DNA of 64,000 bases from a virus: the UHGV virus genome UHGV-0148165. One strand, given 5' to 3'. Below are positions 19,882 to 22,563 of the stretch, piece after piece. Numbering within the stretch: the first letter of the stretch is position 1; the number at the start of each line of letters is the position of its first letter. The notes under the pieces were generated by a model. The model saw only the letters and a program-made list of their open reading frames with translations. It ran no database searches and was not told the DNA's origin. Position numbers and translations under genes: made by a program.

Positions 19882-20439
19882 ATGCAGAAAACAAATCCTG
19901 GGTTACAGAGACTATTTCAGATTCCGACATTTACCCTATCGAACAGTGACTTGACTAGTGAAATGAAGGTCAAAATTGCTGATACAGCAAGATACTCTTT
20001 AAAACAAAACCCGAACCAGGATAAAGCAGAAGTTATCGAAAGATGCCGTATCGCGGTGTACGCAGAGTTTTTTGTAGCAGATTGGCTAAGCGGGTATGTT
20101 AACAAAGGCCAAGAGGATGTTAATGACCCATATACATACGCATGGGATGTATTGGCGCATCCAAGATACTGCGGGCTTCGTGTAGAAGTTAAGACACATC
20201 AAACTGACTCACGTTGGATTTCTGTAACAACAGGATGCAGCGGAGAGTATCCATATGGTTCTGGAATAAATCTAGGGCCCATTCTGAATCATCAGGTCGC
20301 TGACTGTATAATTATATTCAACACTAAAGAAATTCACCCAGGTGTCATTCAGTACACTCCGAAGTTCATTGGTGATAGAGAAGACCTTCGTAAGGTTGTA
20401 AGAAAAAGCAACTACAACGGATGGTATCTTTCCATTTAA
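19882..20439 (+). CDS. denB: endonuclease IV (DenB)
   Basis: 185 aa, same as T4 DenB; position after rIIB. Confidence 0.75.
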   Translation: MQKTNPGLQRLFQIPTFTLSNSDLTSEMKVKIADTARYSLKQNPNQDKAEVIERCRIAVYAEFFVADWLSGYVNKGQEDVNDPYTYAWDVLAHPRYCGLRVEVKTHQTDSRWISVTTGCSGEYPYGSGINLGPILNHQVADCIIIFNTKEIHPGVIQYTPKFIGDREDLRKVVRKSNYNGWYLSI

Positions 20440-20455
20440 AAATTTTCACAAAACG

Positions 20456-20485
20456 GTTTACATACCACAAGGACTGTGGTACTAT
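20456..20485 (+). promoter_or_regulatory. T4-type early promoter (repeated cassette)
   Basis: TTCACAAAACGGTTTAC...GTGGTACTATACAACTATCA; near-identical copies at about 24080 and 40535. Confidence 0.65.
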
Positions 20486-20512
20486 ACAACTATCAGCTAC
20501 GGAGGAGTAAAA

Positions 20513-20776
20513 ATGAAATTTAAATTTTATTACGCTAAACATAAAATTACCGGTGAATTTATTGCATTTACGACTTCAACTACAGATGAAGGAGATATTT
20601 TTACTGCAGTATTTTTATCAAAATGGGAATCAGATCAACCTTACTTATCATCACGTGAAGATCTCCAACGATTAGTTAATGGAGAATATAATGATTCATG
20701 GTCATATTTAGTCCATGATTGTGTTAAAAAGGCAATAAAACAAAAACACTTGGAAATCGTTGAGATTGAACTATGA
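20513..20776 (+). CDS. hypothetical protein (87 aa)
   Basis: ATG with GGAGGAG SD. Confidence 0.5.
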   Translation: MKFKFYYAKHKITGEFIAFTTSTTDEGDIFTAVFLSKWESDQPYLSSREDLQRLVNGEYNDSWSYLVHDCVKKAIKQKHLEIVEIEL

Positions 20777-20859
20777 GTTCATTATGGTGGTGTTTTGTTT
20801 GGTTAATTAGTATTCCAGTAATTTGTTTAACATTTACTTTTGTGATGAGGTTATTATGA
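20773..20859 (+). CDS. small hydrophobic peptide (28 aa)
   Basis: MSSLWWCFVWLISIPVICLTFTFVMRLL; start overlaps upstream stop. Confidence 0.35.
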   Translation: MSSLWWCFVWLISIPVICLTFTFVMRLL

Positions 20860-20954
20860 AAATTTTGAATTCTGTACTTATTGCTTGTGCGTGGTGGGTT
20901 GTGCAAGTTTCAGCGGTAGTAGTTGGTATTCACATTTATTACGAATATTTTTAA
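20856..20954 (+). CDS. small hydrophobic peptide (32 aa)
   Basis: MKILNSVLIACAWWVVQVSAVVVGIHIYYEYF; start overlaps upstream stop. Confidence 0.35.
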   Translation: MKILNSVLIACAWWVVQVSAVVVGIHIYYEYF

Positions 20955-20959
20955 AAAGT

Positions 20960-20990
20960 TGTTTACAAGACTGTTCTTCCGTGGTACTAT
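20960..20990 (+). promoter_or_regulatory. T4-type early promoter
   Basis: GTTTAC then 19 bp then TACTAT. Confidence 0.6.
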
Positions 20991-21018
20991 TACCCTATCA
21001 ACTACGGAGGAACAGAAA

Positions 21019-21132
21019 ATGAAAAAGATTGTTAAAGCTATATGGAATGTAGTTATAATACTAATAGTTTTGAGTATATTCCCAATCGTTTTAATGATTG
21101 ATGTATTAAACGTTTACTTTGGATTTATGTGA
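21019..21132 (+). CDS. small hydrophobic peptide (37 aa)
   Basis: MKKIVKAIWNVVIILIVLSIFPIVLMIDVLNVYFGFM with GGAGGAA SD. Confidence 0.4.
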   Translation: MKKIVKAIWNVVIILIVLSIFPIVLMIDVLNVYFGFM

Positions 21133-21139
21133 GGAAAAT

Positions 21140-21337
21140 ATGAAGCGTAAACGCAGTGCTTTTACATTTATTGAATGGTTTTTCGATAATATTTTTCCGG
21201 CTTTATTCATTTTCATGCTGATTTTTGCCTTAGGTTCAGTTGTAGTTGGAATTTATTTGATGACGGTAGTCGGAATGGATATTCATCAAAATGGTTTAAA
21301 ATCCGTGGTTGAAACAATTTGGAATGGTGTAAAATGA
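21140..21337 (+). CDS. small membrane protein (65 aa)
   Basis: ATG 21140 with GAGGAAAA SD (track start 21119 is TTG); hydrophobic core. Confidence 0.45.
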   Translation: MKRKRSAFTFIEWFFDNIFPALFIFMLIFALGSVVVGIYLMTVVGMDIHQNGLKSVVETIWNGVK

Positions 21338-21444
21338 TGAATTTGCTGAGTGGTTGGTTTTATATTCTTATGTTTTACATTGGTGCAAATTTCCCATATT
21401 GGATGGGATGGTCAACAACTGCATTTGGATTTTATACTCCTTGA
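21334..21444 (+). CDS. small hydrophobic peptide (36 aa)
   Basis: MMNLLSGWFYILMFYIGANFPYWMGWSTTAFGFYTP; ATGA overlap with upstream ORF. Confidence 0.35.
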   Translation: MMNLLSGWFYILMFYIGANFPYWMGWSTTAFGFYTP

Positions 21445-21452
21445 GGTGAATT

Positions 21453-21668
21453 ATGAAAAGTTTTAAAGATGTAAAAGTTGGTGAAATTTTTTGTTTAGAT
21501 AACGGTGATCAGTTAATTCGTATTTCACCTCTTAAGAGCACTAGCGAGAAAATGACAGTTAACGCTACTTTAGAAAATAATAGTAATGAACGTTTCTGTA
21601 TTGAAAATGATACTGAAACTTATACCGTAGAAGAATTCTGGGAATTGAGCGTCGACTGCGACGATTAA
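21453..21668 (+). CDS. hypothetical protein (71 aa)
   Basis: ATG with GAGGTGAA SD. Confidence 0.5.
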   Translation: MKSFKDVKVGEIFCLDNGDQLIRISPLKSTSEKMTVNATLENNSNERFCIENDTETYTVEEFWELSVDCDD

Positions 21669-21728
21669 TTTATCGGCCGTGTGTATTCATACGGCCTTGG
21701 AGTAGAAAATAATTTAGAGGAAATTAAT

Positions 21729-22184
21729 ATGAAATATATGACTGTTACTGATCTGAATAATGCAGGCGCAACTGTTATTGGTACAATCAAGGGTGGTGAG
21801 TGGTTTTTGGGAACTCCGCACAAAGACATTTTGTCTAAACCTGGATTTTACTTTTTAGTGAGTAAACTCGGTGGTCCATTTAGTAGTCCATGCGTATCTG
21901 CACGATTTTATGTAGGTAATCAGCGTTCTAAGCAAGGATTCAGTGCGGTTTTAAGTCATATTCGTCAACGCCGGTCTCAGCTTGCGCGTACTATTGCAAA
22001 TAACAATGTTCCATACACAGTATTTTATCTGCCTGCTTCTAAGATGAAACCTCTGACGACAGGATTTGGAAAAGGTCAGTTAGCTTTGGCGTTTACTCGT
22101 AATCATCATTCTGAGTATCAAACACTTGAAGAAATGAACCGCATGTTGGCTGATAACTTTAAATTCGTTTTGCAGGCATATTAA
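21729..22184 (+). CDS. ndd: nucleoid disruption protein Ndd
   Basis: 151 aa from ATG 21729 (track ORF opens at an upstream GTG); length equals T4 Ndd; followed by stp. Confidence 0.75.
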
Positions 22185-22264
22185 TGAGTAATTTCCACAA
22201 CGAACACGTGATGCAGTTCTATCGTAACAATCTTAAAACCAAAGGCGTCTTCGGACGCCAGTGA
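22184..22264 (+). CDS. stp: Stp peptide, activator of host PrrC anticodon nuclease (26 aa)
   Basis: Encodes [26 protein letters not shown], recognised as T4 Stp; ATG overlaps ndd stop. Confidence 0.8.
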
Positions 22265-22271
22265 GGAAAAT

Positions 22272-22430
22272 ATGAATATCGCAAAATTATTAGGAGTTAT
22301 TTCATTTATTTGTTGGATAGTAGCATGTGTTTTAACTATCTGTATTGATGCCAGCAGTGTGTTTTCGCAAGCTTTAGCTCAGGGTATGTGTGCATATTTA
22401 ACATTTGTGTTGTTATCTACTAATGATTAA
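22272..22430 (+). CDS. small membrane protein (52 aa), ac (acriflavine resistance) position
   Basis: MNIAKLLGVISFICWIVACVLTICIDASS...; size and position consistent with T4 ac. Confidence 0.45.
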   Translation: MNIAKLLGVISFICWIVACVLTICIDASSVFSQALAQGMCAYLTFVLLSTND

Positions 22431-22563
22431 GAAAATCTTGGGCTATTCATTAGCCCTTGCTATTTTATTGATAGCATTATATTACGGAATAATGTTCGGA
22501 TTAATTCAAGTCGTGCTTTTCATTTCTGATGTTATTATGGCACTACATTCACTAGTATGGTAA
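22423..22563 (+). CDS. small membrane protein (46 aa)
   Basis: MIKKILGYSLALAILLIALYYGIMFGLIQVVLF...; overlaps upstream ORF end. Confidence 0.4.
   Translation: MIKKILGYSLALAILLIALYYGIMFGLIQVVLFISDVIMALHSLVW

Follow-up and report, generated by a model that had tools for sequence, protein, structure and literature searches.

Orthologues of T4 ndd.6 to ndd.2, predicted to encode membrane micro-proteins, between denB and ndd of a T4-like phage genome

Between denB and ndd, the 64,000-nucleotide viral genome analyzed here (UHGV-0148165; "the window" refers to this whole stretch) carries five tiny hydrophobic ORFs. Sequence comparison shows that the window is a Tequatrovirus (T4-like) genome, with 99.6% nucleotide identity to phage fFiEco06 and 499 T4-like records matched, and that its ORFs are orthologous to T4 ndd.6, ndd.5, ndd.4, ndd.3 and ndd.2, already annotated as early genes. 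The genes ndd.2–ndd.6 are already known: they entered the T4 map decades ago, each has its PHROG family, and the 65-aa gene has a Pfam entry. We give an even chance to the overall reading that these known genes encode conserved, dispensable membrane micro-proteins with an accessory role exerted through partners. The features of the region are as follows.

20457..20485, + strand: early promoter P_E1 (TTTACA-17-TACTAT, TG-extended) from a consensus scan, upstream of orf87, ndd.6 and ndd.5
20513..20776, + strand: orf87, soluble ORF of 87 aa, homologue of PST ORF268 (phrog_2390)
20773..20859, + strand: ndd.6 orthologue, 28 aa (MSSLWWCFVWLISIPVICLTFTFVMRLL), predicted single TM helix, at the T4 ndd.6 position (phrog_8851, E = 1.6e-17)
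20856..20954, + strand: ndd.5 orthologue, 32 aa, predicted single TM helix (phrog_5011, E = 1.6e-25)
20962..20990, + strand: early promoter P_E2 (TTTACA-17-TACTAT) from a consensus scan, upstream of ndd.4, ndd.3, ndd.2 and ndd.1
21019..21132, + strand: ndd.4 orthologue, 37 aa, predicted N-in single TM helix (phrog_3098, E = 2.9e-21)
21140..21337, + strand: ndd.3 orthologue, 65 aa, Pfam DUF7248 (PF23906, E = 8e-20, full length; phrog_2401)
21334..21444, + strand: ndd.2 orthologue, 36 aa, aromatic-rich, uncharged, hydrophobic (phrog_4135, E = 1.7e-24)
21453..21668, + strand: ndd.1 orthologue (phrog_2183), 71 aa, soluble; no further small gene follows it in the P_E2 unit

An earlier note on this DNA had placed five consecutive ORFs at 20773–21444, and our ORF check of the window found all of them there, on the + strand, with lengths of 28, 32, 37, 65 and 36 aa. 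They had been described as mostly overlapping. This holds for two of the four junctions, which are 4-nt ATGA stop-start overlaps (20856–20859 for ndd.6/ndd.5 and 21334–21337 for ndd.3/ndd.2), but not for the other two, a 7-nt gap between ndd.4 and ndd.3 and a 64-nt spacer between ndd.5 and ndd.4 with an early promoter inside. T4 ndd.1–ndd.6, which had been proposed as the comparison, proved to be the right set, with alignment, annotations and PHROG assignments all pointing to ndd.6 through ndd.2. Every ORF matches its own PHROG over the full length (E = 1.6e-17 to 5.6e-30), and T4 aligns collinearly with the window at 89% nucleotide identity overall, near-identity within the ORFs and 95–100% amino acid identity between the proteins. 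The order denB, (cassette ORF), ndd.6, ndd.5, ndd.4, ndd.3, ndd.2, ndd.1, ndd is conserved on one strand, and the flanking genes (denB, ndd.1, ndd) and the two predicted early promoters are the same as in T4.

The layout is identical to that of the T4T and PST annotations. It differs from the T4 reference record in that the window has one extra G, giving an intact 65-aa gene, an ACG where T4 has a spurious upstream ATG of ndd.4, and an 87-aa cassette ORF between denB and ndd.6. The cassette ORF, which the earlier list of ORFs did not contain, is a variable element upstream of the array: it is absent from T4, where only a remnant (MKIAEIEL) is left, and the window allele is 55% identical in amino acid sequence to the other Tequatrovirus allele. 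The start of ndd.6 overlaps its stop.

The observation that some of the ORFs have their own Shine-Dalgarno (SD) sequence or early promoter was borne out. SD motifs lie ahead of ORFs 2, 3 and 4, namely ndd.5 (GAGG), ndd.4 (GGAGGA) and ndd.3 (GAGGA), and translation of the array is probably driven by these sites together with ATGA stop-start coupling. The gene ndd has its own SD, with a hairpin upstream. P_E1 corresponds to the promoter annotated at 1017–1053 in T4 record X75802, and P_E2 is the one annotated at 1296–1332 in the same record; both fit the T4/PST early promoter consensus TTTACW-N17-TAYWAT (PMC4122927). P_E1 is predicted to drive orf87, ndd.6 and ndd.5, and P_E2 to drive ndd.4, ndd.3, ndd.2, ndd.1 and probably ndd as well.

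Each ORF had been claimed to be dominated by a single TM helix. The best 17-residue Kyte-Doolittle windows, from ndd.6 to ndd.2, score 2.35, 2.32, 3.38, 2.82 and 1.41; four ORFs thus have a clear TM core, whereas ndd.2 is aromatic-rich and moderately hydrophobic. These profiles suggest that each product is a bitopic inner-membrane micro-protein of 28–65 aa, and the distribution of charge predicts an N-in/C-out orientation for Ndd.5, Ndd.4 and Ndd.3. Ndd.2 and Ndd.6 are almost without charged residues. Some T4 annotations carry the older labels "outer membrane" and "periplasmic"; these seem to be predictions left over from earlier localization software rather than data. To gauge the chance background, we counted 254 ATG-initiated ORFs of 28–70 aa in the six frames of the window, 44 of them with a hydrophobic window of at least 2.0. 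Hydrophobicity by itself is not above chance, while the comparative signal is. Because hydrophobic mini-ORFs are common by chance in this AT-rich DNA, the case for genes rests on comparison.

We compared 18 distinct Tequatrovirus sequences and sorted their variable sites by codon position. Excess variation at the third position is seen for ndd.3 (3/2/22, P = 3.8e-7), ndd.2 (5/3/15, P = 0.0017) and ndd.5 (3/2/11, P = 0.004), with a pooled P of 2.5e-8, and within-genus pN/pS is roughly 0–0.3 for these genes. The corresponding counts for ndd.1 in the Tequatrovirus alignment are 1/4/21. For ndd.4, the seven variable sites within the genus are too few for the codon-position test, and its support comes from between-genus comparison, where the amino acid motifs of ndd.4, ndd.3 and ndd.2 are kept despite saturated synonymous sites. 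No third-position excess is seen for ndd.6 in the same 18 sequences (5/2/2). The comparisons show that four of the five ORFs (all but ndd.6) evolve as protein-coding sequence under purifying selection. Conservation in related phages, on which the earlier note had let its claim depend, is accordingly found for these four, which stand as genes, while ndd.6 is weakly supported.

The distribution of the genes is uneven. Members of the array have been gained and lost independently per genus, and some natural isolates have lost a whole gene or carry genes fused together. In a tblastn search with the five peptides concatenated, identities were distorted by cross-frame alignments, and this search served only for picking distant records; scans of IMG/VR gave few loci, mostly the same isolates.

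By these comparisons ndd.4 is the most widely conserved of the five. It was found by tblastn in 622 phage records, from phages of many host genera, and in Pectobacterium phage PM2 it is the sole ORF between denB and ndd. Sixteen residues are invariant across five genera (Tequatro-, Dhaka-, Gapriver-, Kanagawa- and Mosugukvirus), and cross-genus pN is ∼0.23 compared to a pS of 0.6–0.8. Eight invariant positions in the TM core fall mostly inside a 160-degree arc, suggestive of one helical face, although this clustering is statistically weak. A further candidate role for Ndd.4, that of anchoring Ndd to the membrane, was given little weight, since cloned ndd by itself has been reported to disrupt the nucleoid.

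The product of ndd.3 has a basic N-terminus, one predicted TM helix and a C-terminal G-L-K-x(6)-W-x-G tail. It scores 71 bits against DUF7248 (cut-off 27; model positions 4–57 of 58). In an alignment of 23 family members, G52, K54, W61 and G63 are invariant and the TM segment is free to vary; the predicted periplasmic tail, GLKSVVETIWNG, is likewise invariant. An AF2 model (pLDDT 87.5) has helices at 5–17, 19–51 and 53–62, with a break at Gly52 before the short last helix. The 65-aa ORF corresponds to "ndd.3" plus "ndd.2a" of the T4 reference, the alignment differing by 1 nt: the reference record is short of one G, and so the gene is split in two. The gene is intact in resequenced T4 strains and in every other relative examined, and T4T annotates the 65-aa form. 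Judged from these alignments, the ORF seems novel solely in comparison with the T4 reference and is the true form of two mis-split genes. A word-index protein homologue search with it gave just eight near-identical matches. DUF7248 genes also occur on two kinds of metagenomic contig that resemble early regions of large phages.

Of the remaining genes, ndd.5 is confined to Tequatrovirus, with 491 phage records in tblastn, all full length and with at least 90% amino acid identity. Ndd.5 was considered as a lipoprotein on account of L-I-A-C at residues 8–11, a candidate that we rejected: the Cys lies just 11 residues from the start, within the hydrophobic core. The ndd.2 motif G.N.[PA]YW[ML]G is common to Kanagawavirus homologues, and the gene is frameshifted in phage slur02. 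Dhaka-, Gapriver- and Kanagawavirus share the ndd.6 motif WC[FL][IV]W..IP..C; phage sb4 and one IMG/VR genome carry broken copies of the ORF, and among the five gene calls ndd.6 is, on present comparisons, the least secure.

Published T4 data bear on expression and dispensability. Transcripts of ndd.2–ndd.6 are classed as early (PMC9697503 Table S2), and in the proteome of the same study all six T4 entries for the array are "NA", whereas Ndd.1 protein was detected, as early. This absence is tempered by the fact that tiny hydrophobic peptides are poor mass-spectrometry targets. A literature search for T4 ribosome profiling returned nothing relevant; searches for DUF7248 and the PHROG identifiers likewise returned nothing, and searches by gene name only papers on neurodevelopmental disorders. 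In a CRISPRi-ART screen, ndd.1 to ndd.6 were classed "Not fit" (PMC11879866). In HIDEN-SEQ of T4, the ndd.x genes were all non-essential, with nearly all sites hit by insertions, and none was listed as a hit in the presence of RexAB, RnlAB, CBASS or DarTG1/2 or in minimal medium. On the laboratory E. coli hosts of these screens, T4 can do without the genes. These screens had escaped the earlier note.

How might such proteins act? AcrZ, MgrB, MgtS and SgrT, all small proteins with a single TM segment, act on larger membrane proteins to which they bind, as do the lysis proteins E and LysM of phages. The ndd.x products resemble AcrZ, MgrB, MgtS, SgrT, CydX and KdpF in being bitopic proteins of 30–65 aa in which partner binding is suggested by the conservation of one TM face or of a short tail; they differ in that there is no homology, in being phage-encoded and expressed only in infection, and in that the partner is hypothetical. 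Searches of NCBIfam, PADLOC and PDB sequences gave no meaningful matches for the array proteins, and hence no homologue of known function. We tentatively favor, at clearly less than even probability, a mechanism in which each peptide acts through a larger envelope protein that it binds and does no damage to the bilayer. In Ndd.4 the contact would be made by a sequence-specific TM helix, and in Ndd.3 by an invariant periplasmic peptide of 12–14 residues on a TM anchor of variable sequence. The target would be an envelope function of the host or of a rival phage (transport, exclusion or defense) that is relevant in some hosts or conditions only, and such a conditional target would account for genes that are retained in nature yet neutral in the laboratory. 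As published screens covered few conditions, "conditionally useful" is an assumption. The independent gain and loss of members between genera led us to reject an obligate multi-subunit complex and suggests that the proteins probably act separately.

T4 Imm and Sp are early, small, envelope-located, non-essential accessory proteins, and the ndd.x products, which belong to the same phage group, are predicted to be like them in these respects. One or more of the peptides could block secondary phage entry at the inner membrane or periplasm, as Imm and Sp do. Superinfection exclusion of this kind would fit the early T4 transcripts, the inferred membrane location and the dispensability in single-phage laboratory assays, as should be so for an exclusion gene. 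We nonetheless regard it as unlikely: none of the five ORFs has any sequence relation or Pfam or PHROG match to Imm or Sp, Imm differs in having two TM helices and Sp in being secreted to the periplasm, and we know of no exclusion phenotype for any ndd.x. In a variant of this idea, the periplasmic tail of Ndd.3 would mimic a tape-measure repeat and disturb channel formation by the incoming tail. The Ndd.3 tail NGLKSVVETIWNG resembles a single unit of the 11-residue W..G[IL]KS repeats of TP901-type tape measure proteins (PF10145), e.g. GMKSVVETIWQG in P0016, and it matches four proteins of 820–976 aa, two of them with a PhageMin_Tail core, 5–9 times each. Ndd.3 itself does not qualify as a tape measure protein, defined by the core plus tandem 11-mers and more than 500 aa: DUF7248 proteins have one unit instead of 5–10, no PhageMin_Tail core, a TM anchor and 50–76 aa. 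The matching repeats in the phage collection come from siphophages of Gram-positive hosts and none from enterobacterial phages, so a direct decoy role in E. coli would have no visible target, and the tail motif, a short amphipathic helix, could be convergent. In a bolder combination, Ndd.3/DUF7248 would hold one tape-measure-type repeat, tethered to the membrane, at the periplasmic face, where it would poison or guide membrane insertion of tape-measure or ejection proteins, and Ndd.4 would use its TM helix, throughout the Tevenvirinae, to inhibit an inner-membrane protein conserved among enterobacteria. This is a long shot, to be placed below even the toxin-like role considered further on.

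Many genes around the array serve host interaction (rIIB, denB, ndd, stp and ac), and rIIA/rIIB, near the array, act against RexAB. T4 Ac and gp52.1 (window 22272–22563) share the island, size class, single-helix architecture and early expression of the ndd.x products, while belonging to different sequence families; of these two, ac alone has a genetic phenotype (acridine sensitivity). Such surroundings, together with early timing, dispensability on laboratory hosts, patchy distribution and cassette-like turnover, would suit peptides that neutralize membrane-embedded abortive-infection or defense effectors of natural hosts. This seems a little less likely again than exclusion, given that HIDEN-SEQ reported no ndd.x hits under the defense systems it covered and that no match to defense or anti-defense families was found in PADLOC at E <= 1; conservation of Ndd.4 across phages of many host genera is better explained by a conserved housekeeping target than by a strain-specific defense. 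A toxin-like role, in which the peptides would depolarize or permeabilize the host membrane and so aid host shut-off, had been suggested by the earlier note. Here we find it improbable. Size and hydrophobicity do resemble TisB, Hok or Ibs-type peptides (and, more generally, Hok, TisB, IbsC, LdrD and ShoB), and the genes are transcribed immediately after infection. However, conservation is position-specific (Ndd.4) or limited to the soluble tail (Ndd.3) rather than generically hydrophobic or amphipathic, Ndd.2 and Ndd.6 have nearly no charged residues, and loss of ndd.x genes carries no measurable cost. T4 also needs an energized cell throughout the latent period. The antisense-RNA partner typical of type I toxins was not found for the ndd.x genes: a search of 20300–21800 on both strands against Rfam, which covers described RNA families, gave no match at E <= 1, toxin-antitoxin RNAs included. 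The lysis timing that had also been proposed fits poorly, as T4 transcripts are early and the five ORFs, in an early unit rather than a lysis cassette, have no Pfam or PHROG match to holins or antiholins. Least probable of all is that the ORFs are non-functional, being chance frames in AT-rich leader or promoter-cassette DNA or mattering only through translational coupling to ndd. The frequency of hydrophobic mini-ORFs (44/254), the lack of peptides in T4 mass spectrometry, the absent coding signature and broken copies of ndd.6, and the natural losses and fusions all point that way; against it stand the third-position excess and low pN/pS of ndd.3, ndd.2 and ndd.5, the motifs of ndd.4, ndd.3 and ndd.2 kept while synonymous sites saturate, and the SD and upstream hairpin that ndd has of its own. 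For four ORFs, the substitution pattern largely refutes this reading.

The window gives no special handle on the role of conserved early membrane micro-proteins in T-even infection. It does confirm the five-gene layout as real, over the seven-ORF layout of the T4 reference, and since four of the five micro-ORFs are under purifying selection, they are worth keeping in annotations, which often drop them. Should the tape-measure likeness of Ndd.3 prove functional, its display would represent peptide mimicry as a new way of achieving superinfection exclusion or entry control. The comparison also tells apart two designs: in Ndd.4 it is the TM helix that is conserved, in Ndd.3 the periplasmic tail, and this distinction can guide mutagenesis.

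The window carries five ORFs of 28, 32, 37, 65 and 36 aa at 20773-21444, just as the earlier note had described, all on the + strand. Their arrangement and surroundings are as follows.

Features between denB and 52.1 in the window
19882-20439: denB, upstream of the array
20457-20485: promoter-like site, TTTACA-17-TACTAT, consensus fit
20513-20776: 87-aa soluble ORF, upstream of the array
20773-20859, + strand: ORF 1, ndd.6 orthologue, 28 aa
20856-20954, + strand: ORF 2, ndd.5 orthologue, 32 aa
20962-20990: promoter-like site, TTTACA-17-TACTAT, consensus fit
21019-21132, + strand: ORF 3, ndd.4 orthologue, 37 aa
21140-21337, + strand: ORF 4, ndd.3 orthologue, 65 aa (ndd.3 plus ndd.2a of the T4 reference)
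21334-21444, + strand: ORF 5, ndd.2 orthologue, 36 aa
21453-21668: ndd.1, after the array
21675-21696: hairpin GGCCGTGTGTATTCATACGGCC, between ndd.1 and ndd
21729-22184: ndd, after ndd.1
22184-22264: stp
22272-22430: ac, predicted small membrane protein, downstream of ndd and stp
22423-22563: 52.1, predicted small membrane protein, downstream of ndd and stp

The ORFs had been called mostly overlapping. ATGA overlaps do join ORFs 1/2 and 4/5, but a 64-nt spacer precedes ORF 3 and 7 nt precede ORF 4. The same overlap links ORF 1 to the stop of the 87-aa ORF, so the array starts one gene past denB. GAGG-type Shine-Dalgarno motifs lie upstream of ORFs 2, 3 and 4, and there are two promoter-like sites. 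Both fit the T4/PST early-promoter consensus, TTTACW-N17-TAYWAT (PMC4122927), and occupy the positions of two promoters annotated in X75802, the original T4 ndd-region record. The hairpin, also annotated as a stem-loop in X75802, lies directly ahead of the SD of ndd, whose read-through or translation it may influence. Past ndd/stp, ac and 52.1 add to the series of small membrane proteins with one or two helices, such that 7 of the 12 genes between denB and gene 52 encode predicted membrane mini-proteins; other genera carry further, different ones in this interval. The window and T4-like phages have a single stp, versus two stp-like ORFs (motif NEH[VA]MQ) downstream of ndd in Dhakavirus loci L017, L033 and L035.

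The array consists of already known, annotated hypothetical genes and is ordinary in a T-even genome. Its region matches 499 T4-like records (at least 80% query coverage in 445), the closest being Escherichia phage vB_EcoM-fFiEco06 at 99.6% identity. Each of the five ORFs matches its own PHROG over its full length, and the 65-aa ORF matches Pfam DUF7248 (71 bits). The proposed comparison with T4 ndd.1-ndd.6 proved apt, since alignment to T4 and its annotation identifies the ORFs as ndd.6, ndd.5, ndd.4 and ndd.3 plus ndd.2a, and ndd.2. The ORF list nonetheless looks unlike the textbook T4 map because of three differences from the T4 reference: a missing G, the ndd.4 start and the 87-aa ORF.

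In the second codon of the 65-aa gene (window 21140-21146), one G is absent from NC_000866 and the 1994 record X75802, which read ATGAA-CGT where the intact gene has ATGAAGCGT. This splits the DUF7248 gene into 'ndd.3', 26 aa read in the wrong frame, and 'ndd.2a', 40 aa from an internal ATG. Given that the G is present in T4T (where Ndd.3 is annotated at 65 aa), T4 'wild', PST, fFiEco06, all IMG/VR relatives and every other relative examined, the split most probably goes back to an old sequencing error. The annotation with the split gene remains in use in omics and CRISPRi work. The start ATG of the 42-aa ndd.4 annotated in T4 falls within the Shine-Dalgarno (ACTATGGAGG, window 21004-21021); the window reads ACG at that position, and the form conserved across genera is 37/38 aa, starting MKK. 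The 87-aa ORF, a homologue of PST ORF268 (phrog_2390), is deleted in T4, leaving an empty slot with the remnant MKIAEIEL. This slot, 3' of the first early promoter, is a cassette site. The window allele shares 55% aa and 66-68% nt identity with the other Tequatrovirus allele, versus at least 95% for the flanking small genes; PST, slur02 and G28 carry an additional 68-aa ORF, and RB9 has a 68-aa ORF in place of the 87-aa ORF. The denB-ndd.6 locus serves as an example of promoter-cassette shuffling in the PeSL paper (PMC4122927).

Hydrophobicity alone does not exceed chance, because 44 of the 254 ATG-ORFs of 28-70 aa in the six frames of this AT-rich window contain a 17-residue stretch with mean hydropathy of at least 2.0; the evidence is comparative. 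We counted variable sites at codon positions 1/2/3 among 18 distinct Tequatrovirus sequences. The counts were 3/2/22 for ndd.3 (P = 3.8e-7), 5/3/15 for ndd.2 (P = 0.0017) and 3/2/11 for ndd.5 (P = 0.004), with pN/pS roughly 0-0.3 for these genes within the genus, and 3/4/3 for the promoter spacer. With 7 variable sites, ndd.4 offers too few for this test within the genus; between genera it retains 16 invariant residues (M1 K2 K6 I8 W9 N10 V17 L18 I20 F21 P22 V24 I27 D28 V32 F34), with pN about 0.23 versus pS 0.6-0.8. These patterns show a coding signature for four ORFs. Judged likewise, ndd.6 is the weakest gene call: its counts are 5/2/2, and it is broken by an in-frame stop in phage sb4 (L046) and a frameshift in IMGVR_UViG_2974742932 (L005/L022). 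Its WC[FL][IV]W..IP..C motif recurs in Dhaka-, Gapriver- and Kanagawavirus. Decay in single isolates is seen elsewhere, with ndd.2 frameshifted in slur02 (L047) and ndd.1 split in fFiEco06 (L002), the window's closest relative.

Across Tevenvirinae, gene order is conserved and gene content modular.

Array members by genus or phage
Tequatrovirus: ndd.6, ndd.5, ndd.4, ndd.3, ndd.2 all present
Gaprivervirus: (ndd.6), ndd.4, ndd.3, ndd.1
Dhakavirus: (ndd.6), ndd.4, ndd.1
Kanagawavirus PEi20: ndd.4, ndd.2, ndd.3 + CxxC mini-ORF
Kanagawavirus CIP9: ndd.6, ndd.4, ndd.2 + CxxC mini-ORF
Pectobacterium phage PM2: ndd.4 alone between denB and ndd

Sequences like ndd.4 were found in 622 phage records, among them phages of Klebsiella, Serratia, Kosakonia, Enterobacter and Edwardsiella; ndd.5 is limited to Tequatrovirus (491 records, each at least 90% aa identity). 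That members come and go independently of one another speaks against the products forming an obligate hetero-complex. The CxxC mini-ORF (41-62 aa; L013 2762-2899, L014 3365-3490, L015 3215-3403), within the small-gene array of Kanagawa- and Gapriverviruses and absent from the window, has a CxxC...H/C..C pattern (e.g. MTIKRIYHCYECGKPIENIF...HIKC) and looks like a zinc-ribbon mini-protein.

The products are predicted to be bitopic inner-membrane proteins, with an N-in topology for Ndd.5, Ndd.4 and Ndd.3 suggested by charge distribution. Ndd.4 has a basic N-terminus (MKKxxK, +3) and a 17-residue core that includes Pro22, with Asp28 marking the C-terminal boundary; on a helical wheel, 8 of its 10 invariant positions from residue 17 onward fall in a 160-degree arc. 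Ndd.2 and Ndd.6 are nearly without charged residues, and Ndd.2 is 33% aromatic. Ndd.3 begins MKRKR, and its AlphaFold2 model (pLDDT 87.5) shows three helices (5-17, 19-51 and 53-62), the last two separated by a break at Gly52. A DUF7248 profile search over 1.84 billion representatives returned 27 matches. Common to the small ones (47-76 aa) are a basic N-terminus, a single TM helix of unconstrained sequence and an almost invariant tail, [ED]xGLK[SN][VI][VI][ED]x[IV]W[NED]G, in which G52, K54, W61 and G63 are invariant. The family includes a member in Serratia phage CHI14 (Winklervirus) and two on metagenomic contigs, in small unidirectional ORF arrays beside Cpn10, RNA ligase and UvrD-type helicase genes, contexts that look like large-phage early regions. 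Two fusions created by in-frame deletion occur naturally, ndd.4::ndd.3 in Shigella phage Sf25 (P0007) and ndd.5::ndd.3 in a 151.8-kb 'Escherichia phage T4' record (P0008); both retain the tail behind another TM helix, consistent with an interchangeable anchor.

The profile also matched four proteins of 820-976 aa (P0012, P0016, P0021, P0025), 5-9 times each, via the C-terminal motif; two of the four have a PhageMin_Tail tape-measure core. The tail NGLKSVVETIWNG (window 21293-21334) resembles single units, such as GMKSVVETIWQG, of the 11-residue W..G[IL]KS repeats of TP901-type tape measure proteins. A designed, non-natural tandem of this motif, used as a query, picked up tape-measure genes of numerous Bacillus, Paenibacillus, Streptococcus, Staphylococcus, Enterococcus, Gordonia and Mycobacterium phages; all matches in the phage collection were to phages of Gram-positive hosts, with none to an enterobacterial tape measure. 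Direct mimicry is thus without a visible target in E. coli, and the likeness may reflect convergence on a short amphipathic helix.

In T4, ndd.2 to ndd.6 transcripts are 'early' and their proteins undetected, with Ndd and Ndd.1 detected (PMC9697503 Table S2). The array genes have been shown to be dispensable there on the laboratory E. coli hosts of two screens: ndd.1 to ndd.6 are rated 'Not fit' by CRISPRi-ART (PMC11879866) and non-essential by HIDEN-SEQ, in which insertions fell at almost all sites (bioRxiv 10.1101/2025.11.20.689424). We found no paper giving any of T4 ndd.2-ndd.6 a function. The earlier interpretation was generic and only in part borne out; none of its three suggested roles, superinfection exclusion, lysis timing or toxin-like action, gained support. 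Superinfection exclusion by these peptides seems unlikely. Counter-defence against membrane effectors is a slimmer prospect, the specific hits reported under RexAB, RnlAB, CBASS, DarTG1, DarTG2 and minimal medium being other genes (bioRxiv 10.1101/2025.11.20.689424). Toxin-like depolarisation is improbable, given position-specific conservation, no cost on loss of the genes and no TA-type RNA found by an Rfam search of 20300-21800. That the ORFs are non-functional overall is very hard to credit, though ndd.6 alone might perhaps be so, a doubtful case.

Characterised small membrane proteins act in a way that suggests another model. From this and the conservation patterns, we tentatively favor, as a possibility short of a probability, that the peptides each have a larger envelope protein as binding partner. 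Ndd.4 would engage its partner through a sequence-specific TM face and Ndd.3 through a tethered periplasmic tail, and the benefit to the phage would be confined to some hosts or to competition.
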